A stretch of DNA of 64,000 bases from sequence record PZ445451.1; one strand, 5' to 3'. Every line of letters starts with the position of its first letter. The first letter of the stretch is position 1. This document shows positions 12,587-64,000 of the stretch, one piece after another. The DNA is from a phage. A program made the position numbers and the translations under genes. The notes beneath the pieces are model-generated. The model saw nothing but the letters and a program-made list of their open reading frames with translations. It had not been told where the DNA came from and ran no database searches.

Positions 12587-12797
12587 AACGCACTTTATAC
12601 ATCCGTTTGATCCAAGGAACAAGGCGGTTATACACCGCCGTTGGACTGAAACGCGCATTACAAAATGTCCTGTGCCAGCAGCACAGGAATATAACAAAAC
12701 ATATAAAGCAGAATTTGTGGAGTACACCTTTGTAAATAACAAAGGGAAGGAGGTTTATGTTCCAGAATACTGCCTTTGGATAAAATGGGAGGAATAA
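12579..12797 (+). CDS. hypothetical protein (72 aa)
   Basis: Track ORF overlapping its neighbours. Confidence 0.5.
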   Translation: MSKTHFIHPFDPRNKAVIHRRWTETRITKCPVPAAQEYNKTYKAEFVEYTFVNNKGKEVYVPEYCLWIKWEE

Positions 12798-12964
12798 TGC
12801 AAACATTTTTTATCGACAAGTTCAATAAAAATATGAACACGTGGATGGCAACATTCACTATGCAATTTGCATCGTTTAAAGAAGCTCAAGAATGGTGCGA
12901 TCAACACAAGGATTTTGACTTTTACTATCAAATCAATCCGAATCTCTCTCCAGAGGAGAAATAA
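12797..12964 (+). CDS. hypothetical protein (55 aa)
   Basis: Track ORF 12776-12964 trimmed to ATG 12797 (GGAGGAATA RBS). Confidence 0.45.
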   Translation: MQTFFIDKFNKNMNTWMATFTMQFASFKEAQEWCDQHKDFDFYYQINPNLSPEEK

Positions 12965-12965
12965 T

Positions 12966-13310
12966 ATGTTGGCTGATATTGAAATCCTTATGTACCGACA
13001 AGGTATGATCAAAATGTGGCTAGATTCTTTTAGCAACATATACTGCACAGTACGATCAGCAGACGAGCGTAAAACGCTTATTTTATCTGCTATTGTTGAT
13101 AAACAACGTTTCTTCAAAGAAATTTTGCAAACAGGCTTCTCCGATGCAGGAGTAGAGATTGCAACGCTTAGTCTTGGAGTGCTGTCTTACTTGGAATCCG
13201 TTGTTTTATATGTCTTCTCTTTAGAAGAACACTTGCAATTTGAAGCATTAAAACTTATCTTAGATGCTGCAATTGACATAGAACAAAATCGAATTGATTC
13301 TTTTGAATAA
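12966..13310 (+). CDS. hypothetical protein (114 aa)
   Basis: Track ORF 12867-13310 trimmed to ATG 12966. Confidence 0.55.
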   Translation: MLADIEILMYRQGMIKMWLDSFSNIYCTVRSADERKTLILSAIVDKQRFFKEILQTGFSDAGVEIATLSLGVLSYLESVVLYVFSLEEHLQFEALKLILDAAIDIEQNRIDSFE

Positions 13311-13326
13311 AAATAAGGAGGAAACT

Positions 13327-13785
13327 ATGCAAGAGGTTAAACATTATCCACATGGTCGTAGTTTTGTAGCTGTATGGCATGTTCCTGCTCGTAATGAACT
13401 ATTTTGTGCATCTTTTCATTACAAAGATGGACAATATTTCACCTATGACGAGACGATGGATGATTTTATCCCAGAGTGCGATCATGGGTATACACCAATG
13501 TTCTTTAAACGTATGAAAGCTCGTTTCTTCGTTACAGATGTTGATGGTGAACCTACTTGGCACATCGAAGAAGATTGGCAAGATTCTGTGGATATTAAAG
13601 AAGCCCCAGAATGGGCTACATTACTGGTACACGTCAAAACCCCTACTCTTGACGTTATGGCGTGGGTTAATCATGATGATACCCATTACCAATACATAAA
13701 TGGTAGCACAGAGATTTCTGGTGAGATTATTGGTCGTTGGAAGCCTACGAATCAGGTTGCTATTGTCGGGTATAAGACAGTATAA
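13327..13785 (+). CDS. hypothetical protein (152 aa)
   Basis: Track ORF 13294-13785 trimmed to ATG 13327 (AAGGAGGAAACT RBS). Confidence 0.65.
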   Translation: MQEVKHYPHGRSFVAVWHVPARNELFCASFHYKDGQYFTYDETMDDFIPECDHGYTPMFFKRMKARFFVTDVDGEPTWHIEEDWQDSVDIKEAPEWATLLVHVKTPTLDVMAWVNHDDTHYQYINGSTEISGEIIGRWKPTNQVAIVGYKTV

Positions 13786-13786
13786 T

Positions 13787-13981
13787 ATGAAAAAGAGTGT
13801 AGATTGGGATGATTTATCCGATTTTGAAAAATGGTTCTTAGGTAGTGGTTGTTATGCAGATGGGGATCTCGAAAGAGATCCTTCTGGAAACTACACTATG
13901 CCATTAACCCAAGGTTTTTATGAGTGCTGGTGCGCAGCACAAAACAACGTACTGAATAAGGAGACAACACAATGCAATTAA
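13787..13981 (+). CDS. hypothetical protein (64 aa)
   Basis: Track ORF 13700-13981 trimmed to ATG 13787. Confidence 0.5.
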   Translation: MKKSVDWDDLSDFEKWFLGSGCYADGDLERDPSGNYTMPLTQGFYECWCAAQNNVLNKETTQCN

Positions 13982-16891: not shown

Positions 16892-17067
16892 ATATTAAAA
16901 CAGGTGATATTGTACGTCTTGCCAGTGAAGAAATGTTAATGACTGTAATGGTATCTACTTACGATACTTGCGAAGTGGTGTGGTTTGATGTTAATGAGCA
17001 ACTACAGAAAGCTACATTTGATAAACGTATGCTTCGTAAAGTTGAAGAAGTGAAGGAGGAAGAATAA
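16885..17067 (+). CDS. hypothetical protein (60 aa)
   Basis: Track ORF; GGAGGAG RBS. Confidence 0.5.
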   Translation: MVNIKTGDIVRLASEEMLMTVMVSTYDTCEVVWFDVNEQLQKATFDKRMLRKVEEVKEEE

Positions 17068-17068
17068 T

Positions 17069-17281
17069 ATGGGAATGTTGCTTCGTGTTTTTGTGTTTCT
17101 TATGTTCTGGATTATCGTTGGTAACGGTATTGTATTTTTGATTTTTCCTGAAGTGATGACAGGTAATGAAAATAAGGCAGTGCCTTACATTATGCTTATC
17201 GGTTACGGTATTGGTACACTTGGACTACTGTTTGCTGATTGGTTAATCAATACTTTGTTCTCTAAGTACAGGAACAACTAA
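17069..17281 (+). CDS. integral membrane protein (70 aa, two TM helices)
   Basis: Track ORF; hydrophobic throughout. Confidence 0.55.
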   Translation: MGMLLRVFVFLMFWIIVGNGIVFLIFPEVMTGNENKAVPYIMLIGYGIGTLGLLFADWLINTLFSKYRNN

Positions 17282-17282
17282 T

Positions 17283-17555
17283 ATGTCGGAAAACTTACCT
17301 AATGTTTTCTTTTGTTTTGTAGATTGTGTTACACAAGAAATTATAGTTGACGAAGAAGGTATGTTTACTTATTTTGCATCTGAAGAAGAGGCAAAACTAT
17401 CAGTTATGAAATGTATAAGCCAACTATCAGTACCTGCTGTCAACAGGTTCGGTATTGCACAGGTGTATAAAACAGTAACAGAGTTTACACCAGATCGAAA
17501 ACTAACTTTTCTTAACGTTCACTTTGTTTGTAAGTTTAGTGAACTACGACATTAA
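17283..17555 (+). CDS. hypothetical protein (90 aa)
   Basis: Track ORF. Confidence 0.55.
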   Translation: MSENLPNVFFCFVDCVTQEIIVDEEGMFTYFASEEEAKLSVMKCISQLSVPAVNRFGIAQVYKTVTEFTPDRKLTFLNVHFVCKFSELRH

Positions 17556-17568
17556 ATCAGGAGTAAAA

Positions 17569-18168
17569 ATGAAAGAATATTGGAGTGGTGAGAAGGGCTT
17601 ACTAAAGCCAGGAATGCTTTTACGAGTAAAGAACATGTTGATCACACAAGATTACATAATGCCTAATCCTGGAGCATTAGTAGAATTCCTTACTGCGCGA
17701 GATCAACCTGGGATTGGTGAAATGTGGATTGTAACGTGGATATCTCTCGATGGTAAATTGCGCGTTGCTCCTATTGACCCAAAACACTTAGAATCTCCTT
17801 ACGCCAGTATTGATCCTCGGATCATAGATTTGGCTAGAGTTTATAAAGCTCGGACTGGTGTAGAATTAAATGTGGAAATTTTAAATCAATGTATTGACTT
17901 CTTACCGGAAAAAGTGCATAATGCTCAACAAGAAGGTAACGGTTTAGAAGTTGTTCTTCTTAATGATGGGATGTTCTCTGGTTTGGCATCCGTAGATTTT
18001 CCAATAACATTAAGATTGTTACCTGGAGAATATGTACTGGATGAAGATACTATTGCTATATCCTCTAAAATTTTAGAACTCATTCCAGGTGCAAGGTGTG
18101 TTGGTGATACATCTTCCTTGCTGTTTACTCTGAATGAAGAAGCCATTATAGTTAAAAAGGAGAAGTAA
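17569..18168 (+). CDS. hypothetical protein (199 aa)
   Basis: Track ORF 17524-18168 trimmed to ATG 17569 (CAGGAG RBS). Confidence 0.65.
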   Translation: MKEYWSGEKGLLKPGMLLRVKNMLITQDYIMPNPGALVEFLTARDQPGIGEMWIVTWISLDGKLRVAPIDPKHLESPYASIDPRIIDLARVYKARTGVELNVEILNQCIDFLPEKVHNAQQEGNGLEVVLLNDGMFSGLASVDFPITLRLLPGEYVLDEDTIAISSKILELIPGARCVGDTSSLLFTLNEEAIIVKKEK

Positions 18169-37880: not shown

Positions 37881-40142
37881 TTACATCTTACAAGACTCAC
37901 AACCGGATTCTTCATCCTCTTGAGCGAGTGAGGTTGCTGATTTTGTTCGACTATTTAGATAGTACAAAGATTTACCACCAAGTTTTGCAAACTGAAGGAT
38001 ATATTGCATTTCTGATTTAATGGATAAACGACCACCTTCCATCTTAGAATAGTCAATCCACTTGTCACATGATGCACCTTGATCTAAGAATTTAGTCAAC
38101 AGTCCATATGCTTCAGCCATATCTTTATCTGGCGTATCCCAAGCCGATTGGTAAATATCTTTTAGTTTATCGTAATCTGGCACAATAAACAAGACATTAC
38201 CTTTTTGGCTTTGTTTATAAACTATAGTATCACGTACAGGATACACAGAGTTAGTCGTATTACTTACAAGACTACTGGACTCATTCGGAGCAATAGCTGC
38301 TAATACACTATTTCGGATACCACCTTGTGCAATTATATCTTGTCGTAAACCTTCCCAATCCATTTTAAGTTTAAAATTGCCAATATCGTCTACAGCTTTA
38401 GCGTAGGTATCAATAGGCAACCATCCTTCAGGCCATTTGGTTTTATGCATCCATTCTGCATTACCTTTCTCTTTTGCCAAACGAAGAGAAGCTCTTGCTA
38501 ACCAGTAATAATGTATTTCTGCTAATTCGTGAATTAGTTTTTTGCCGTAAGGATCTGAATAAGTAACAAAATTACTTGCCAGATAATGTGCAAGGTTTGT
38601 AATACCTACACCGATAGACCTACGTGCTTTAGCAGTGATTTCGTTATGTTTAAACGGATACTGCATTGTTTCAATCACATTATCAATAGTTAGAACGGTA
38701 TAATATGCAACATCTTCATATTCTTCTGGTGTAACACGACCAGCTACAATAGAAGACAGGAAGCATAATGCCAATTCTTGGTCTTCTGTATTCTCACCTG
38801 TGAAAAGATCAGTCATATTGTGAAATGCTTTCGTAGGTAAGAAAATTTCTTGGCACAAGTTTGACTGGTAAATAACATCCTTAAACGGAGTATGCTTATT
38901 AACATTATCCGCAAAGAACATATAAATACGTCCTGTTTCTGCTCTTTGTGTAATAATTTCTGCCAGAAGATCTCGTGCTTTTACAAACTTCTTCTTAATT
39001 CGTTTGCGACTAACTTTTTCATATACTTCTTCAAACTCTTCCTCGCTTTTATAAAGCGCCTCATAGAGTTCTGGTGCTTCGTCATAACTGACTAGCATCC
39101 AATCTTTACCTTTTGCTGCACGGCGCAGGAAAGCATTGTTTACTACAATAGAGTAATCAAGTTTATCTACTCGTTTTTCACTAACAGTAGTTGGATTTTT
39201 CAAACGTACCAGATCTTCAAAATCAGGTTCCAATATTGTAAACGTTACTGTTGCACTTCCACCACGGCTTGCTTGTTTTGATGCTCCAACACTTGTTTCC
39301 ATCCATTTCAGATATGGTAAAAGACCACCGTGAACTATACGGTTGTTCTTAACACCTTGTCCTGTAGCACGGGTTTGGAGGTTAACACCAATACCTGCAT
39401 TATTCAATGTATATTCATGAGCAAGATAGTTAGCAATTGCTAAAGATTCTGCTGTATCATCTGCTCTAAACAGACAACAAGAAGCACTACCTTTAATCTT
39501 AGTACGCAAAGTTGTTAAATAAGGTGATGGTAAATTAATCTTAAGATCACTTACGTAGGTATATAGACGTTTAATGTCTTCTACTCTGCGATCTTTTGGT
39601 TGAATTTCCATTACCTTCATTGCTACACCAATGAATAAAAACTGTGGTGATTCAAAAACCACATCATTGATCGCATCTTTCACAAGATACTTATCAACCA
39701 TCTGGCGCAGTACGGAATAACCATAAGTTAGGTTTTTATCATGATTGATAATTTTACCAATCTCAATAATTTCTTCTTCTGTATAATCCATTTTCCCCCA
39801 ATAGCCTTTACTTACAGACATATTGTAGAAATCCAGGAGGGAGGGGATATTGTGATATCCCCCATGAGCCTGTTTATAGATCATACCAAGAAGTAACCGA
39901 CCTGCCATATCACTATATGCCTGATCTTTCTTATCAATACATGCTGCTATCATAGCTTTATGTAAATCACGAGTAGGCACACCGTCGTAACAACGTTTAA
40001 CAGCTTCGAGTTCAATTTCAGACCAATTTAATTTACCAGCAGCAAACTCTGACCATTTACGAAGTTTTTCTGGATTAAATTCTTCTTTCTTGCCGTTTGT
40101 TTTTGTTACATAACGGATAGATTTGCTTAGATACTGAGTCAC
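37881..40142 (-). CDS. nrdA: ribonucleotide reductase class Ia large (alpha) subunit with N-terminal ATP-cone
   Basis: 753 aa; ATP-cone-like N-terminus; catalytic Cys/Asn/Glu region; C-terminal CxxC tail. Confidence 0.9.
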   Translation of the reverse strand: MTQYLSKSIRYVTKTNGKKEEFNPEKLRKWSEFAAGKLNWSEIELEAVKRCYDGVPTRDLHKAMIAACIDKKDQAYSDMAGRLLLGMIYKQAHGGYHNIPSLLDFYNMSVSKGYWGKMDYTEEEIIEIGKIINHDKNLTYGYSVLRQMVDKYLVKDAINDVVFESPQFLFIGVAMKVMEIQPKDRRVEDIKRLYTYVSDLKINLPSPYLTTLRTKIKGSASCCLFRADDTAESLAIANYLAHEYTLNNAGIGVNLQTRATGQGVKNNRIVHGGLLPYLKWMETSVGASKQASRGGSATVTFTILEPDFEDLVRLKNPTTVSEKRVDKLDYSIVVNNAFLRRAAKGKDWMLVSYDEAPELYEALYKSEEEFEEVYEKVSRKRIKKKFVKARDLLAEIITQRAETGRIYMFFADNVNKHTPFKDVIYQSNLCQEIFLPTKAFHNMTDLFTGENTEDQELALCFLSSIVAGRVTPEEYEDVAYYTVLTIDNVIETMQYPFKHNEITAKARRSIGVGITNLAHYLASNFVTYSDPYGKKLIHELAEIHYYWLARASLRLAKEKGNAEWMHKTKWPEGWLPIDTYAKAVDDIGNFKLKMDWEGLRQDIIAQGGIRNSVLAAIAPNESSSLVSNTTNSVYPVRDTIVYKQSQKGNVLFIVPDYDKLKDIYQSAWDTPDKDMAEAYGLLTKFLDQGASCDKWIDYSKMEGGRLSIKSEMQYILQFAKLGGKSLYYLNSRTKSATSLAQEDEESGCESCKM

Positions 40143-40153
40143 TTCCTCTCCTA

Positions 40154-40414
40154 TTAATTGTGCATGTTTAGAACATCTACATCATAACCGCCACGCATCT
40201 CATTATATAAGCCATTTGCGTATAGAAAACCTTCAAAATGATCTATACCTTCAAAACCTTTTGCCTTTGCTTTGCGGTCTGCTTCTTGTCTTTTTGGGGA
40301 TAATCTTTTAGATGTATCAAGGATAACTGTTACATTGCAACCTAATGTTTCATCAAAATAGACTTCAATTTCACAGCCTTCATATTTATTACTTTCTGTC
40401 ATTTGGCCTCTCAA
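40154..40414 (-). CDS. hypothetical protein (86 aa)
   Basis: Track ORF. Confidence 0.5.
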   Translation of the reverse strand: MRGQMTESNKYEGCEIEVYFDETLGCNVTVILDTSKRLSPKRQEADRKAKAKGFEGIDHFEGFLYANGLYNEMRGGYDVDVLNMHN

Positions 40415-40825
40415 TTAGAATTCAGAATCATCATCTCGTGATGGATCATGTTCATTTCCGAAGTCTTCCATTTTGATATGAGAGCTACCCCAACCTGTAA
40501 AATCTTCTTCTCCAAAGTGCAAAATATCTACACCTTGATAGATTCGCTTATATTTATAGTCTTGTCGAACTGGGAAAGTATACAATGTAGTATTTGCAAA
40601 CACCACACGTCGATTGTTGTTACTACGAATATTAACACCACGTTCTACTGTATAATGTCCATCGGTAGACATACCAAGCATTACTAATGCTGCTCGCAAT
40701 GTAGTGTTATGATACTCGTGAGGAATTTTTCCTCCGTGTTTTTTAGCCATTTCTTTCCAGATCGGTGTAGCCTTAATGGTAGACATACTTACGGTCGCCC
40801 AAACGGTTGTATTAATTAGTGACAT
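40415..40825 (-). CDS. hypothetical protein (136 aa)
   Basis: Track ORF. Confidence 0.55.
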   Translation of the reverse strand: MSLINTTVWATVSMSTIKATPIWKEMAKKHGGKIPHEYHNTTLRAALVMLGMSTDGHYTVERGVNIRSNNNRRVVFANTTLYTFPVRQDYKYKRIYQGVDILHFGEEDFTGWGSSHIKMEDFGNEHDPSRDDDSEF

Positions 40826-40923
40826 AAATTCTCCTTCTCTCTTTTTAAGGAGAGCTACGCTCTCCTAACGTTAGCCTATACTACACGAATCTCAATTAAA
40901 AGTCAACTATAATTTTAAGTTGA

Positions 40924-41895
40924 TCACCATTTTGTATGGTTAGTCAAAAGTTGACGATGTTGAATCCAACCACAGAAGTTTCCACTCCACAAACGATGTT
41001 TACGATCCATATGTGTAATACCTTCTTCCCAAGAGGTAGGGAACGGAGGAATATTAATACCACCTTTCTGTTGTTTTAATCCTGACAAATCCATTTCTTT
41101 CATTGGCGTTGCCTGGTGTTCAAACGGAGATGCATGTACCTTTTGTCCAGACAGCAAACGAGAATAGATATCCAATGCTTTATCTTTGGTATCATTCAAT
41201 TTACGATAACTTACCTGAGCGCAACAAGAAGCTGAAATAGCTTTTGCTTCCTCTTCTGTCAACATTTTCTCGTTGGAGAAGGTTTCACCCAAGAAATAAC
41301 GGATCATACCAGTTTCTGGATCTCGATCACGATTAACGTAAGGTGTATGCCATTCCCCTGGGAAAAGAAGATATGGTTCAGAAGATTCATACAGTTTTTT
41401 AATTTCTTTAGCAAGAGCCTCAATAGTAGGATCTGCATCAGCATCTACGCGCAACCACAAGAAGTTTTCTAGCTCTGTAGTGGTTACTACAGTCTTCATA
41501 CGCTGGAATGGTTCTAGTAGGCGGTTTGCAACCTGTTTATGATAACCAGCAAGGGCAAACTCTTCTGCAAAACGTGCAGCACTTAGCGCAGCCAAGTCCC
41601 ACCATTCTTTTGCAGTGTAACCTGCATCAATCAGGGCATCGTGATCTGTGCCTTTATCTTGCATACCTGGTTGGTTAGCACCAAAACGATAAGGACGTGC
41701 TGGAGATTGCCGTACCATTTCAATTAGAGTTTTAACAGGGATAGCTCGACTTGATGCGGCATTACGAGAAAACAAACGATGCGTCATCAATTCAGAGTGA
41801 ATGATTCGAGGATATTCAAGTTCAAAGGTAACAATATCCTTACCTTCAGATGTTTGAGAGTGTGCAATAATTTTTGCTGAAATAGAGTTTGTCAT
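40924..41895 (-). CDS. thyX: flavin-dependent thymidylate synthase
   Basis: ThyX signature RHR..S.....S.R (HRLFSRNAASSRAIP). Confidence 0.85.
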   Translation of the reverse strand: MTNSISAKIIAHSQTSEGKDIVTFELEYPRIIHSELMTHRLFSRNAASSRAIPVKTLIEMVRQSPARPYRFGANQPGMQDKGTDHDALIDAGYTAKEWWDLAALSAARFAEEFALAGYHKQVANRLLEPFQRMKTVVTTTELENFLWLRVDADADPTIEALAKEIKKLYESSEPYLLFPGEWHTPYVNRDRDPETGMIRYFLGETFSNEKMLTEEEAKAISASCCAQVSYRKLNDTKDKALDIYSRLLSGQKVHASPFEHQATPMKEMDLSGLKQQKGGINIPPFPTSWEEGITHMDRKHRLWSGNFCGWIQHRQLLTNHTKW

Positions 41896-59485: not shown

Positions 59486-59561
59486 GGTTCCATAGCTCAC
59501 TGACGAGAGCGAACACCTCATAAGTGTCGAGGGCAGGGATTGTAACCCTGGGGAACCACCA
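59486..59561 (+). tRNA. tRNA-Met/Ile2 (anticodon CAT), atypical T-loop
   Basis: Hand-folded cloverleaf: 6/7 acceptor pairs, D-stem GCTC/GAGC, anticodon loop CTCATAA, T-stem CAGGG/CCCTG, loop ATTGTAA (non-canonical), CCA encoded. Confidence 0.5.
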
Positions 59562-59592
59562 TTTAAAAGGAGGTGTTATGCATCTCCTATAT

Positions 59593-59678
59593 GCAAGTGT
59601 GGTGGAATTGGTGATACACATTGTGCTTAAAACGCAACGCTTAAATGATTGAGGGTTCGAATCCCTCCACTTGCACCA
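59593..59678 (+). tRNA. tRNA-Leu (anticodon TAA), type II
   Basis: Acceptor GCAAGTG/CACTTGC, anticodon loop CTTAAAA, 13-nt variable arm, T-arm GAGGG-TTCGAAT-CCCTC, A73, CCA encoded. Confidence 0.75.
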
Positions 59679-59680
59679 AC

Positions 59681-59786
59681 GCCTAGTAGGGTATTTGGTA
59701 ATTCCGAGGCCATCAAAGCCTGAAAAATATGTTAGACCGCTTTGTCTAACTAAATACGAAATATGGTTCGATTCCATAACTAGGCT
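59681..59786 (+). ncRNA. aberrant tRNA-like element (~105 nt; perfect acceptor plus canonical T-arm but no standard D/anticodon arms)
   Basis: GCCTAGT (59681-87) pairs perfectly with ACTAGGC (59779-85); T-arm TATGG-TTCGATT-CCATA; internal hairpin GTTAGAC-CGCTTT-GTCTAAC. Confidence 0.3.
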
Positions 59787-59860
59787 TCAATTTAAATAGT
59801 AATTTTAGTAAAAAATATCTTGACATTTACTTAGTTTTTTTGTTATAGTCGTTATGAAAA

Positions 59861-59942
59861 CGGGGTGTATCTCACCTGACTTCTAATCAGGCGTTAACCG
59901 AGTAATTGGAGTATGCAGGTTCGAATCCTGTCACCCCGGCCA
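59861..59942 (+). tRNA. tRNA-Arg(TCT)-like RNA lacking a D-arm
   Basis: 7 bp acceptor, canonical anticodon arm CCTGA-CTTCTAA-TCAGG, canonical T-arm GCAGG-TTCGAAT-CCTGT, CCA encoded; only 7 nt between acceptor and anticodon stem and a 23-nt insert before the T-arm; TTGACA promoter at 59820. Confidence 0.45.
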
Positions 59943-60669: not shown

Positions 60670-60754
60670 GATGGATTGGCCTAGTGGTTGGGCGACGGAC
60701 TGTTAATCCGTGAACGAAAGTTCTAGCAAGGTTCAAATCCTTGATCCATCGCCA
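60670..60754 (+). tRNA. type II (Ser-like scaffold, G73) tRNA carrying an Asn anticodon GTT
   Basis: Acceptor GATGGAT/ATCCATC, 3 bp D-stem, anticodon arm ACGGA-CTGTTAA-TCCGT, 15-nt variable arm GAACGAAAGTTCTAG, T-arm CAAGG-TTCAAAT-CCTTG, G73, CCA. Confidence 0.6.
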
Positions 60755-60925: not shown

Positions 60926-61255
60926 GTGTATGTGACAGAAAAAGAGTTAGAGAAATATTTTAATATCAATGTTTTCGATGGTTTTGATGATATCGAAGAT
61001 GTTGAAAGATATTATGAAGTAGAGTTAGATAAGGATAACATTGTAATTCTTTCTGCCACTTATGATTGTGCATATTATGAAGGCGAATCTCACGTTTATT
61101 TTTATGATATGAAAACATCTTTGTTTTATGAAGTACACGCATATCATTGTTCTTGTTATGGTTTAGAAGGTCAGTGGGAACCTGAAGAAATAGGTGATTT
61201 GGATTTTACTATTGCATATCTAAACAGACGTGGTGCATCTACTATTTTAAAATAA
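60926..61255 (+). CDS. hypothetical acidic protein (109 aa) inside the tRNA cluster
   Basis: Track ORF (GTG start) with AAGGAG RBS. Confidence 0.6.
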   Translation: MYVTEKELEKYFNINVFDGFDDIEDVERYYEVELDKDNIVILSATYDCAYYEGESHVYFYDMKTSLFYEVHAYHCSCYGLEGQWEPEEIGDLDFTIAYLNRRGASTILK

Positions 61256-61978: not shown

Positions 61979-62045
61979 ATAAATACCTCCCTTCTGGTGT
62001 AATGATTAAGTTACATTGACACTTCAAGGAACTCATAGCCGGGTA

Positions 62046-62119
62046 GATTTAAAAGAGTATGGTACTCAATATGGCTCCAAACCATAGATCAAGGGGTTCG
62101 ATTCCTCACCTTGCTGCCA
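62046..62119 (+). pseudogene. tRNA-Trp(CCA)-like element with unpaired acceptor stem (probable pseudo-tRNA)
   Basis: Good anticodon arm TATGG-CTCCAAA-CCATA and T-arm-like GGGG-TTCGATT-CCTC ending in CCA, but 5'/3' acceptor strands do not pair. Confidence 0.3.
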
Positions 62120-63325: not shown

Positions 63326-63757
63326 ATGATGATACTGACTATGTTAATAAACCTACTGAAGAATAAATGGGTTAGGTATTTTGTTCTTATTATAGCACTG
63401 TTTGGTGGTTTGTATGTTGGTTTAAACAAATTACACGATGACGTGTATGCACAAGGCTACAACGCAGGTATTGCTAAACAAGAACAAATATTACAACAAA
63501 ACCAAATTAAAGCAAAACAGCAATTCGATATCTTACAAGCAAAAGCAGATTCAGAAAGATCTAAATTGAATGAAAAAATTCATTCATTAACGAAACAAAG
63601 AAATGATCTTCTTACACAACTGGATAAGAAGAGTAATAACATAACACAAGAGAGAATAGATTATGCGAAAACATCTTCTGGCGCTATGTCTTGTTTTAGC
63701 CCTAATGATGACGGGTTGCGCATCATCAACAACAGCTTCCCAGCCTCTATTGATTGA
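63326..63757 (+). CDS. i-spanin-like protein (Rz-like: N-terminal TM helix plus coiled-coil periplasmic domain)
   Basis: Hydrophobic WVRYFVLIIALFGGLYVGL followed by Gln/Lys-rich coiled coil; start codon uncertain. Confidence 0.45.
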   Translation: MMILTMLINLLKNKWVRYFVLIIALFGGLYVGLNKLHDDVYAQGYNAGIAKQEQILQQNQIKAKQQFDILQAKADSERSKLNEKIHSLTKQRNDLLTQLDKKSNNITQERIDYAKTSSGAMSCFSPNDDGLRIINNSFPASID

Positions 63758-63992
63758 GCAGTGTAAAGCTGTAGCAACACAACAAATAAAAGCCCCTGAT
63801 TCTGTCAGTATGGAAAAACCATCTACCCCTGTTTTATATACTCCCAATCAAATAAAGAAAGGGGTTACAAGATCAGAGGTAGTGGATAATCAAACTTTAA
63901 ACAACGCTTTGTGGGAAAAAGATAGGATAAAACTTATCAGTTTACAAAACTATATTAAAACATTACAAAGTGAAGGAATAATTTCTAATTAG
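63663..63992 (+). CDS. o-spanin-like outer-membrane lipoprotein (Rz1-like), start embedded in the i-spanin gene in another frame
   Basis: MRKHLLALCLVLALMMTGC signal peptide with lipobox L-M-M-T-G-C. Confidence 0.5.
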   Translation: MRKHLLALCLVLALMMTGCASSTTASQPLLIEQCKAVATQQIKAPDSVSMEKPSTPVLYTPNQIKKGVTRSEVVDNQTLNNALWEKDRIKLISLQNYIKTLQSEGIISN

Positions 63993-64000
63993 GAGGAGAT

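Follow-up and report, generated by a model that had tools for sequence, protein, structure and literature searches.

Is the DNA that follows the tRNA-Leu(UAA) gene of Escherichia phage PaulScherrer (Justusliebigvirus) a tRNA gene, the remains of one, or an RNA gene with another role? The element in question occupies positions 59681-59786 (+ strand) of the window, by which we mean the whole 64,000-nt stretch of phage DNA that was analysed, and stands at the head of the tRNA array. The first-pass annotation had described it as tRNA-like, with a perfectly paired acceptor stem and a T arm but no canonical D or anticodon arms, and had offered a tRNA with an insertion or intron, a tRNA-like structure with a different role, or a degraded gene. 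We show here that the element is a genuine, conserved and selectively maintained gene for a non-canonical tRNA, and we establish its fold, the family to which it belongs and the restriction of that family to phages.

Genomic context and annotation

Two tRNA genes called by ARAGORN, tRNA-Met and tRNA-Leu(UAA), lie upstream (59486-59678, + strand), and the latter (59593-59678 including its CCA, + strand) is separated from the element by a spacer of 2 nt. The same 2-nt distance from the CCA of the preceding tRNA was found in most lineages carrying a homolog, and across lineages the element keeps its syntenic slot inside tRNA arrays. The flanking genes are also on the + strand, and a promoter scan revealed no promoter-like site between the tRNA-Met/tRNA-Leu pair and the element, which is probably co-transcribed with both. 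A sigma-70-like promoter identified by sequence scan at 59820-59849 (+ strand; TTGACA-18-TATAGT, 11/12 matches) is the start of the next transcription unit and the 3′ bound of the unit that contains the element. We infer that the element is expressed and processed. Its 3′ trailer is TCA (59787-59789, + strand), at the place where CCA is encoded in other lineages; close relatives of PaulScherrer have TTC or CCC, so that three trailers occur among near-identical Justusliebigvirus genomes. U73-CCA is encoded in every lineage with a UCA anticodon (UCA type, which includes PaulScherrer) except Justusliebigvirus, and all other tRNAs of the PaulScherrer array encode their CCA.

Standard gene finders miss this gene. 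ARAGORN at default settings called no tRNA over the element, the Rfam tRNA model (RF00005) gave no match over 59681-59789 either at the gathering score (29 bits) or at E<=10, and a clan-wide Rfam search of the element returned nothing even at E<=10. Once the variable region alone is trimmed, ARAGORN calls a tRNA with the anticodon TCA, albeit placing the anticodon at position 33, not 34. In GenBank, family members carry no label or are named hypothetical protein, tRNA-Lys, tRNA-OTHER, tRNA-TERM or tRNA-???, and the records of phages cardinal, Eryne and Mydo place CDS features across the element. The label ‘tRNA-???(atcc)’ is a mis-registered ARAGORN call on the rV5 (UUU) type; we rejected it as a label of the NCC type, because it is on the rV5 type that ARAGORN gives this call. 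Published tRNA counts omit the gene, as in the ‘six tRNAs’ of rV5 (PMC3606486) and the ‘16 tRNAs’ of BME3 (PMC12210895).

A cloverleaf with an oversized variable region

Direct reading confirmed the perfect pairing of the 5′ acceptor strand GCCTAGT (positions 1-7; 59681-59687, + strand) with ACTAGGC (59779-59785), which is followed by the discriminator T (U73), the 3′ strand and discriminator together spanning 59779-59786 (+ strand). The T arm, TATGG-TTCGATT-CCATA, was likewise found as first described (59762-59778, + strand); its stem is AU-rich in the window copy. The two arms said to be missing are present. Following the linker A8-G9 (59688-59689, + strand, placed by alignment), a D arm at 59690-59705 (+ strand) reads directly as the stem GGTA (59690-59693)/TTCC (59702-59705), with one U12.U23 mismatch in this copy, around the loop TTTGGTAA, which includes GG. 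This stem is extendable by U14:A21 and U15:A20 to 6 bp with a TGGT tetraloop, the form predicted by RNAalifold; both additional pairs are invariant, and covariation therefore neither supports nor contradicts the extension. The anticodon-like arm (59706-59722, + strand) consists of AGGC (59707-59710), the loop CATCAAA (59711-59717) and GCCT (59718-59721), that is, a 4-bp stem flanked by a G.G mismatch (G59706/G59722), with the anticodon TCA at 59713-59715 and A, not U, at position 33.

The 7-bp hairpin with a 6-nt loop noted in the first pass, GTTAGAC-CGCTTT-GTCTAAC (59731-59750, + strand, by direct reading), lies inside a variable region of 39 nt (59723-59761, + strand), between an A-rich strand, AAAAATAT (59723-59730, + strand), and a 3′ strand, TAAATACGAAA (59751-59761, + strand). 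RNAalifold independently predicted the same cloverleaf. Its canonical features are a 7-bp acceptor stem, a D arm, a 7-nt anticodon loop, a 5-bp T stem and a GG/T-psi-C elbow, and the acceptor branch is 7/5 (12 bp) in 23/23 sequences. The canonical U8, A14, nucleotide 26, 5-bp anticodon stem and U33 are absent; instead, the RNA has A8, U14, no separate nucleotide 26 and A33. Ordinary tRNAs have U8, whereas A8 is invariant across the family and faces C65 or A65, itself the partner of position 49.

Compensatory change and selection

Covariation was counted over 23 distinct homologous sequences, in which 97.7% of the pair cells are paired, compared with 31-46% after sliding the partners by 1-3 columns, and 13/21 pairs show two-sided changes. 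All seven acceptor pairs are 100% paired, five of them changing on both sides; three of the four D-stem pairs show two-sided change; and the outer pair of the anticodon-like arm co-varies (AU 13, GC 8, GU 2). For the T stem, two-sided change was counted in two pairs, and the U49:A65 of the window (G:C elsewhere) adds a third, which an alignment offset alone caused to be scored as unpaired. The tertiary pair G19 (59698):C56 (59769) co-varies without exception, being GC in 17 sequences and UA in 6. All four stems and one tertiary pair are kept by compensatory changes in the PaulScherrer lineage, which speaks against the degraded gene proposed earlier.

Other parts do not vary at all. Every UCA-type lineage has GGC-[C/U]ATCAAA-GCC, although the other stems diverge, and 13 nt of the anticodon stem-loop are unchanged across at least six such lineages. 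In the variable region, AAA right after the arm-closing G, as well as AATAC, is invariant in the 23 sequences, and the hairpin forms in each lineage from wholly different sequence. A leave-one-lineage-out covariance model, built from the other phage lineages only, gave the span 59681-59789 a score of 83.1 bits (E ~1e-18); with that model, the highest score of an ordinary tRNA in the window was 24.5 bits. By both measures, paired cells and model score, the pattern lies well outside chance. The family model finds one copy per phage at 97-120 bits, and ordinary tRNAs score at most 34 bits.

Family distribution and candidate partners

Homologs occur once per genome in Stephanstirmvirinae, in Vequintavirinae (rV5, PVP-SE1, Hena1, Mydo), in an N4-like Salmonella phage and in uncultured viral contigs, the single copy being retained in at least three phage families. 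As far as found, the family is confined to large virulent enterobacterial phages. A search with the loop and T-loop pattern over 185,579 bacterial and archaeal species genomes gave 24 matches, all of them chance matches to ordinary tRNAs, and none of 5,426 complete E. coli genomes matched a UCA-type representative (the pEa_SNUABM_55 sequence) in BLAST; on these two results, we rejected a host or prophage origin. The variable region measures 30-41 nt across the family.

We found no partner protein that specifically co-occurs with the family when the distributions of two PaulScherrer proteins, bas60_0079 and bas60_0080, were checked. The former has a YqeY-like tRNA-binding domain and is no synthetase; it was rejected as a specific partner on account of its spread over many unrelated large phages. 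The latter (phrog_4806) is labelled ‘histidyl tRNA synthetase’, had no Pfam or PDB sequence match, and was rejected since it also occurs in groups where this RNA was not seen, such as Acinetobacter and Caulobacter phages. Hena1 has about 29 other tRNAs and genes for a CCA-adding enzyme, RNA ligases and a kinase-like protein.

Anticodon-loop types, identity elements and UGA

On a constant scaffold, the anticodon loop varies by lineage, being UCA (PaulScherrer), NCC (UCC, GCC), UUU or UAU; wildcard-loop scans returned no loop types beyond these. The UCA type has a 7-nt loop in which A33-U34-C35-A36-A37-A38 is invariant across at least six diverged lineages, and A36-A37-A38 is a pattern typical of tRNAs reading U-starting codons. 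Two features of this type count against a decoder, namely, A33 in every copy, where U33 is near-universal, and an anticodon arm one layer short. The sister copies with sense anticodons have canonical or near-canonical loops, the rV5 copy combining a fully canonical UUUUUAA loop with A73. In the NCC type, the loops have 6 or 8 nt, position 33 is A, C or U and position 34 is U or G, with C35-C36-A37 fixed; such loop sizes and a variable position 33 fit normal decoding poorly.

U73 is present in all UCA-type and NCC-type copies. UUU goes with A73, in line with the bacterial Lys identity set, and NCC goes with U73, G1:C72 and C2:G71, which is most of the bacterial Gly set (U73, G1-C72, C2-G71, G3-C70, C35, C36; PMC9976931). 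We rejected this tracking of the anticodon by the discriminator as proof of Lys or Gly identity, other synthetases fitting as well: the argument is suggestive only, because U73 also fits SerRS on long-arm tRNAs (PMC5389517) and A73 fits LeuRS. The window copy has four of the six Gly elements (U73, G1:C72, C2:G71 and C35; its 3:70 pair is C:G and position 36 is A) and also four of the six Cys elements, and no identity set is complete. Across the UCA type, C3:G70 is invariant. The incomplete identity sets count against a decoder, as do the missing encoded CCA and the D-stem U.U of the window copy.

TGA terminates 34 of the 218 PaulScherrer ORFs (16%). No PaulScherrer gene is interrupted by an in-frame TGA, split-gene candidates being no more frequent than chance in-frame neighbours, and we therefore rejected genome-wide TGA recoding; that TGA is an ordinary stop in this phage is a further point against a decoder. 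In-frame backup stops lie closer behind TGA than behind TAA in two UCA-type phages, PaulScherrer (3.5 versus 8 codons, p=0.03) and Hena1 (7 versus 18 codons, p=0.002), with no difference in the UUU-type control rV5 (6 versus 8 codons, p=0.44). This signal, which has a single control genome, falls to p=0.12 and p=0.055 after removal of ATGA stop/start overlaps, a weakening that likewise tells against decoding.

Relation to known tRNAs

The element is closest to allo-tRNAs and tRNA-Sec-like tRNAs. Like allo-tRNAs (Mukai et al. 2017, PMC5389517; PMC7609411), the family has a long variable arm, U73 in its UCA and NCC types (allo-tRNAs having U73 or G73), a long D stem with a tetraloop (in the family, a possible and predicted extension) and many anticodons, including UAU and stop-reading ones, on one scaffold, and is poorly annotated, some members lying in tRNA polycistrons. 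The roles proposed for allo-tRNAs are missense or nonsense suppression or that of a regulatory RNA (PMC5389517, PMC7609411). However, allo-tRNAs have an 8/4 or 9/3 branch and a longer anticodon stem, whereas the family has a 7/5 branch, with a co-varying 49:65 pair, and a shorter stem; its variable hairpin is flanked on each side by 6-11 unpaired conserved nucleotides; and position 33 of the UCA type is not U. Allo-tRNAs come from Clostridia, Proteobacteria and Acidobacteria, and the family turned up solely in virulent enterobacterial phages.

Bacterial tRNA-Sec resembles the element in its UCA anticodon within a C-N-UCA-A-A loop, a non-U8 and a long extra arm. The D stem of tRNA-Sec, 6 bp capped by 4 nt, is a form possible in the element according to RNAalifold. 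The E. coli selC loop, for example, is CUUCAAA. The differences are the 8/5 branch (13 bp), G73 and 6-bp anticodon stem of tRNA-Sec, in place of 7/5 (12 bp), U73 and 4 bp plus G.G. The selC* tRNA-Cys combines U73 with GCA or UCA (PMC7609411), as the element combines U73 with UCA, but its acceptor stem has 8 bp rather than 7, and 2:71 in the element is C:G, not G:C.

Nuclease-resistant phage tRNAs share with the element an altered anticodon arm and a place in the arrays of virulent coliphages; examples are T5 tRNA-Lys against PARIS, T5 tRNA-Tyr against retron Eco7 and phage tRNA-Thr against P2 OLD (PMC11464382, PMC11555353, PMC12445682). These are otherwise canonical, carry sense anticodons and replace a depleted host tRNA, in contrast to the window copy with its stop-reading anticodon, A33 and 39-nt variable region. 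We know of no nuclease that targets a UCA tRNA. With class II tRNAs (Ser, Leu, Tyr), the element shares a cloverleaf with an extra arm. The class II variable region is roughly 10-24 nt, whereas that of the family has 30-41 nt with long unpaired flanks; the family further differs in A8/U14, the lack of nucleotide 26, a non-U33 and being missed by the Rfam tRNA model. Gly and Ile(UAU) anticodons also sit on a V-arm body in nematode nev-tRNAs, which are V-arm tRNAs with ‘wrong’ anticodons. The T4 stable RNAs C and D (species 1 and 2) are also small RNAs of a phage tRNA cluster, and rnaC has a T-arm-like hairpin, CCGGG-UUCGAAU-CCCGG, after another hairpin, but they are 139 and 119 nt long and form no cloverleaf with an anticodon arm. 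We rejected kinship with them, as the family model with filters off gave 12.9 bits for rnaC and nothing for rnaD.

Possible functions

The explanation that we favour, at a probability of about 0.4, is a processed, chargeable and nuclease-hardened tRNA that reads UGA weakly; the aminoacylation, decoding and nuclease resistance in this proposal are guesses. The RNA is most likely transcribed together with both upstream tRNAs, freed by RNase P and by processing at its 3′ end, and supplied with CCA by a host enzyme; it would then be aminoacylated, with Gly, Cys or Ser as candidate identities. The loop C-A-UCA-A-A could then read UGA, and possibly UGG, at low efficiency, making the RNA a weak opal suppressor. 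The invariant UCA-type loop, the sense anticodons of the sister copies and the nearer backup stops behind TGA speak for decoding. Because its anticodon stem is short, the RNA may also be cut inefficiently by defence nucleases that act on the anticodon arm. In phage tRNA-Thr variants, resistance to P2 OLD comes from losing the 27:43 pair and the CNG motifs of the stem (PMC12445682); the family has an invariant G.G at the equivalent of 27:43 and an RGGN/NCCY stem without CNG. A bolder version, which we regard as very unlikely, makes the UCA type a natural EF-Tu-compatible relative of selenocysteine tRNA that inserts Ser, or Sec via host SelA, at UGA without a SECIS; termination would then be reprogrammed during infection. 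The features of the UCA type match the logic of engineered SECIS-independent Sec tRNAs, and the branch is 7/5 with 12 bp, so that EF-Tu, not SelB, would be the expected partner. U73 and G73 are listed as SerRS-compatible by Mukai et al. (PMC5389517), SerRS could recognise the long extra arm, and the D stem of 6 bp that the RNA may form is the structural determinant for SelA (PMC7609411).

The main rival to a decoder is a non-decoding mimic, made and processed like a tRNA, whose L shape and acceptor end would bind, occupy or inhibit a tRNA-recognising factor; we consider this possible but on the unlikely side, and it corresponds to the ‘different role’ of the first-pass annotation. Its targets might be host nucleases of the anticodon arm, toxins that act on the ends of (Gly-)tRNA or tRNA enzymes of phage or host, and the RNA could alternatively serve as a non-ribosomal aminoacyl donor. 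A mimic would fit the absence of U33 from all UCA-type copies and the NCC-type pattern of varying positions 33 and 34 beside a fixed C35-C36-A37, which looks like recognition by a synthetase or other protein and not like codon reading. Moreover, the invariant single-stranded AAA and AATAC around the variable hairpin suggest a dedicated binding platform, the TacT toxin recognises U73 together with G71 (PMC9976931), and investment in tRNA maintenance is heavy (the CCA-adding enzyme, ligases and kinase-like protein of Hena1, the YqeY-like protein of PaulScherrer). Against a mimic stand, however, the proper 7-nt UCA-type loop with A36-A37-A38 and the rV5 copy with its fully canonical loop and A73; no family-specific protein partner was found, and as a decoy against a catalytic enzyme a mimic would need tight binding or high abundance. 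Less probable still is a decaying or neutral tRNA relic with a functionless loop, its cloverleaf kept as RNase P/RNase Z punctuation of the polycistronic tRNA transcript. The loss of the encoded CCA and the three trailers in Justusliebigvirus, the D-stem mismatch, the AU-rich T stem and the differences in the anticodon loop between lineages point that way, but a relic would hardly hold 13 anticodon stem-loop nucleotides invariant across at least six UCA-type lineages whose other stems have diverged, preserve the AAA and AATAC of the variable region or persist, one copy per genome, in three or more phage families, and the co-varying 19:56 elbow pair is superfluous for punctuation. A recent pseudogene was rejected in view of the single U.U mismatch, the two-sided stem changes and the invariant loop.

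Two further readings have next to no probability. The earlier suggestion of an insertion or intron holds in its first half, the extra ~25-30 nt being an oversized variable region whose trimming restores the ARAGORN call. With introns allowed, ARAGORN does report a tRNA-Asn(gtt) with an 18-nt intron in the window, but it assigns a different anticodon and intron to each homolog (His, Leu, Gln or Met), and the place of the extra sequence is the variable region rather than the anticodon loop. A group I intron would have to be far longer, and, to our knowledge, bacteria have no tRNA splicing endonuclease. We rejected the intron on the inconsistency of these solutions and the conservation of the region as a hairpin between invariant strands. 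The same very low likelihood applies to a small protein gene (a 34-42-aa ORF at 59671/59695-59799) or a minus-strand intrinsic terminator (hairpin plus T run). Some depositors annotate a CDS here (cardinal, Eryne, Mydo), yet none of the frames stays open throughout the family, 1-4 stops interrupt the annotated one in most lineages, and substitutions track base-pairing, not codons. Although a scan flagged the hairpin, read as its reverse complement and with ATATTTTTC behind it, as terminator-like, many lineages form only a weak hairpin (-2.7 to -4 kcal/mol), the T run has only 4-5 nt and there is no convergent transcription: the flanking genes are on the + strand, so there is nothing to terminate on the minus strand.

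Significance

The rV5-, phi92- and PVP-SE1-like phages are widely studied as models and in therapy, and the family offers annotators a target for a covariance model. If the element is a working tRNA, it would widen the range of tRNA structures known to serve bacterial translation (A33, no nucleotide 26, a 39-nt variable region), and a reader of stop codons would be present in common coliphages; a mimic would represent a novel RNA-based form of counter-defence or regulation. With one scaffold and four anticodon-loop types, the family provides a compact system for asking why phages keep odd tRNAs.

Structure and genomic setting of the element

The tRNA-like element at 59681-59786 (+) is 106 nt long, counted to the discriminator U59786. 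Reading of the sequence bears out three features listed in the first-pass annotation, namely an acceptor stem in which GCCTAGT (59681-59687) is fully complementary to ACTAGGC (59779-59785), a T arm (TATGG-TTCGATT-CCATA, 59762-59778) and a 7-bp hairpin with a 6-nt loop (59731-59750). That annotation held that canonical D and anticodon arms were missing, but both had been overlooked: the D arm lies 3' of A8-G9 (GGTA/TTCC with one U.U mismatch, and a GG dinucleotide within the loop; TTTGGTAA), and an anticodon-like arm, G-AGGC-CATCAAA-GCCT-G, occupies 59706-59722. The hairpin falls within the variable region, which spans 39 nt (59723-59761). With the two further arms, this makes the element a cloverleaf whose variable region is oversized. 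The element was called by neither ARAGORN nor Rfam, even at E<=10, and its single-sequence fold is moderately better than shuffles (z = -2.7).

Of the earlier alternatives of an insertion or an intron, the insertion stands: trimming the variable region alone yields a clean ARAGORN tRNA call, with TCA at position 33. The intron does not, because ARAGORN with introns permitted produced a new, inconsistent intron and anticodon in every lineage. The suggestion of a degraded gene is not supported, and a recent pseudogene is rejected: the stems of the window copy differ from those of other lineages through two-sided changes. We also rejected a protein-coding gene (across the family of phage homologs, no frame stays open), a minus-strand terminator (weak hairpins, short T runs and plus-strand neighbours) and kinship with T4 rnaC/rnaD, to which no relationship was found.

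The window matches Escherichia phage PaulScherrer (Bas60, MZ501100; Stephanstirmvirinae, Justusliebigvirus) at 100% identity. The element stands at the head of an array of 15 ARAGORN-called tRNAs, a 2-nt spacer separating its start from the CCA of the preceding tRNA-Leu(UAA), and a strong sigma-70-like promoter lies 3' of it (59820-59849). Depositors annotated either nothing or a 34-aa 'hypothetical protein' at this site. Small conserved ORFs are scattered through such arrays in all relatives; here, a 107-aa ORF (60932-61255, +) has a match in PHROG 8792, of unknown function, and a weaker one in a PHROG labelled 'integrase' (60 residues, E=6e-15). The final 675 nt of the window (63326-64000) overrun the matching GenBank record (150425 nt long, offset 87100), so the window derives from a genome copy that is permuted differently or is terminally redundant.

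A phage gene family with a conserved fold

By BLAST and pattern scans, the element was found in 31 near-identical Justusliebigvirus genomes, with homologs in the Erwinia Henunavirus phages Hena1 and pEa_SNUABM_55 (~70% identity), the N4-like Salmonella phage UTK0002 (Schitoviridae) and several uncultured viral or metagenome contigs of 55-152 kb. A second search, anchored on the 3' part only and leaving out the anticodon, detected this scaffold, bearing different anticodon loops, in Vequintavirinae (rV5-like, Av-05-like, PVP-SE1-, 4MG-, KB57-, Ro1-, AV124- and Mydo-like phages), where the slot is syntenic, between tRNA-Thr and tRNA-Leu(UAA). The BLAST searches returned overlapping sets of 35, 167 and 184 phage records. 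Scans of bacteria and archaea, one genome per species, gave chance matches only, and complete E. coli genomes gave none. With the family covariance model, every phage yields a single copy, scoring 97-120 bits, whereas ordinary tRNAs of the same arrays score at most 34 bits. One GenBank record, that of Hena1, names the gene tRNA-sup(tca); the tRNA counts in the genome papers on rV5 and BME3 leave it out, and a literature search found no published description of the family.

All members share a 7/5 acceptor/T branch, A8 and U14 (tRNA numbering), as opposed to U8 and A14 of ordinary tRNAs, a variable region of 30-41 nt, and a 4-bp anticodon stem flanked by a G.G mismatch, so that they lack either nucleotide 26 or the 27:43 pair. 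The invariant U14:A21 and U15:A20 could give a longer, 6-bp D stem capped by a UGGY tetraloop; as these pairs never vary, covariation is silent on this extension. Each lineage has one anticodon-loop type. Type A, [C/U]-A-UCA-A-A with U73, occurs in the window, Henunavirus, UTK0002 and the uncultured contigs; type B has one additional stem pair, the loop C-[A/C/U][U/G]-CC-A, giving NCC anticodons, and U73 (PVP-SE1, 4MG, Mydovirus); type C has UUUUUAA and A73 (rV5); and type D has UUUAUAA and U or C as discriminator (Av-05).

The structure of the element is under selection. In our cloverleaf alignment of 23 distinct sequences, 97.7% of pair cells hold standard pairs, compared with 81% in column shuffles (0/500 reach 97.7%), a control that overstates significance because the sequences are related. 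Fairer tests are sliding the partners, which leaves 31-46% of cells paired, and a covariance model built without any Justusliebigvirus sequence, which still finds the window element (83.1 bits, E about 1e-18) with U12.U23 as its sole non-standard pair. Two-sided changes affect 13 of the 21 pairs, and the 11 unpaired cells comprise two real U.U in the window's lineage and nine nameable alignment-register effects. The most telling single result is covariation at the tertiary elbow pair 19:56, which reads G:C in 17 of the sequences and U:A in the other six, with zero exceptions; the D loop UUUG(U)CAA goes with the T loop UU(A)GAUU (switched bases in brackets). RNAalifold, supplied with no structure, recovered the same four arms. 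The variable-region hairpin forms in each lineage from unrelated sequences, between the invariant tracts AAA, directly after the arm-closing G, and AATAC.

Other unusual tRNA genes and tRNA-related proteins

A second odd tRNA (59861-59942, +), with its own promoter at 59820-59849, has an acceptor CGGGGUG/CACCCCG, just 4 nt (UCUC) at the D-arm site, a canonical UCU (Arg) anticodon arm, a variable region of 22 nt that includes a small hairpin, a T arm, and G73 followed by CCA. Overlooked by ARAGORN, it scores 38.6 bits with Rfam tRNA, and its full-length relatives (83-86% identity; FelixO1-like, Klebsiella GZ8, jumbo Turkey3 and Proteus Mydo phages) are mostly unannotated or called tRNA-OTHER. 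A third, unannotated tRNA-like gene (~62036-62118, +), between tRNA-Met and tRNA-Ile, has paired ends AGCCGGG/CCUUGCU, discriminator G, CCA, the arm AUGG-CUCCAAA-CCAU with anticodon CCA (Trp) and, at the D-arm site, a GAGUA-UGG-UACUC hairpin with ~10 extra nt; it is conserved in Justusliebigvirus, and its counterparts in Klebsiella phage KP13-26 and Hafnia phage Zyzzx are 81% and 74% identical. At 60670-60754 (+), the 85-nt tRNA-Asn(GUU) folds with an additional hairpin (GAAC-GAAA-GUUC) in its variable arm, which is atypical of an Asn tRNA; the annotations of PVP-SE1, 4MG, KB57, Ro1 and Hena1 likewise list Asn tRNAs 82-86 nt long.

Outside the window, at MZ501100 67015-68034 (minus strand; 17015-18034 of extracted stretch L116), the gene bas60_0079 carries the label 'aspartyl/glutamyl-tRNA synthetase'; its product is a YqeY/GatB-tail-like tRNA-binding domain protein (PF09424, E=4e-8) common to many large Vibrio, Sinorhizobium and jumbo phages. 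Pfam and PDB sequence searches gave no match for bas60_0080, annotated 'tRNA synthetase' (phrog_4806, 'histidyl tRNA synthetase'). The Hena1 genome carries genes for a CCA-adding enzyme and RNA ligase 2, as well as for an Rnl1-type RNA ligase adjoining a polynucleotide-kinase-like protein and a metallophosphatase (loci at 12590-13855 and 39592-41641 of stretch L117 and 20680-21717 of L119); together with ~29 tRNAs, these enzymes are a tRNA repair and maintenance kit.

Possible function of the family

The closest known kinds are allo-tRNAs, tRNA-Sec and selC* tRNA-Cys (PMC5389517, PMC7609411), which share with the family a long extra arm, U73 and many anticodons per scaffold, including UAU and UCA, and also, if the D stem of the family does extend to 6 bp, a long D stem with tetraloop. 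However, the definition of those kinds calls for a branch of 8/4, 9/3 or 8/5 and for a longer anticodon stem, and its 7/5 branch and shorter stem place the family outside them.

In favour of a decoding tRNA, U34-C35-A36-A37-A38 never varies within the 7 nt of the type A loop, and types C and D have canonical loops. Judged by bacterial identity tables (PMC9976931), type C (UUU, A73) agrees with Lys identity and type B (NCC, U73, G1:C72, C2:G71) with most of Gly identity; the window copy has 4/6 Gly and 4/6 Cys elements, and because a long-arm tRNA with U73 also suits SerRS (PMC5389517), the discriminator does not fix its amino acid. Against decoding, every type A copy has A33, the loop of type B is 6 or 8 nt long and differs at position 33 between copies, and the anticodon arm is short by one layer; a tRNA mimic that does not decode would fit these features and is the next candidate, somewhat unlikely but only a little less probable than the preferred reading.

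Stop-codon usage weakly supports UGA reading. The distance to the next in-frame stop after TGA versus TAA is 3.5 versus 8 codons in PaulScherrer (one-sided p 0.03; 0.12 without ATGA overlaps) and 7 versus 18 in Hena1 (p 0.002; 0.055), both type A, and 6 versus 8 (p 0.44; 0.16) in the single control genome, rV5 (type C). TGA is an ordinary stop in PaulScherrer (34/218 ORFs), where a search for TGA-split genes found none. Outside the window, at MZ501100 77240-77827 (minus strand), the TGA that ends bas60_0104 is followed, after a stop-free spacer of 4 codons, by the next gene, bas60_0103, in the same frame; read-through would fuse the two small proteins, an arrangement compatible with chance. 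As for the stem, phage tRNA-Thr variants without the 27:43 pair and stem CNG motifs evade the P2 OLD nuclease (PMC12445682), and on our reading of the alignment the family has an invariant mismatch at the 27:43 site and a stem without CNG. Taking loop, stop-codon and stem evidence together, we tentatively prefer, with a probability of about 0.4, the reading that the element may be a processed, chargeable and nuclease-hardened tRNA that would read UGA weakly.
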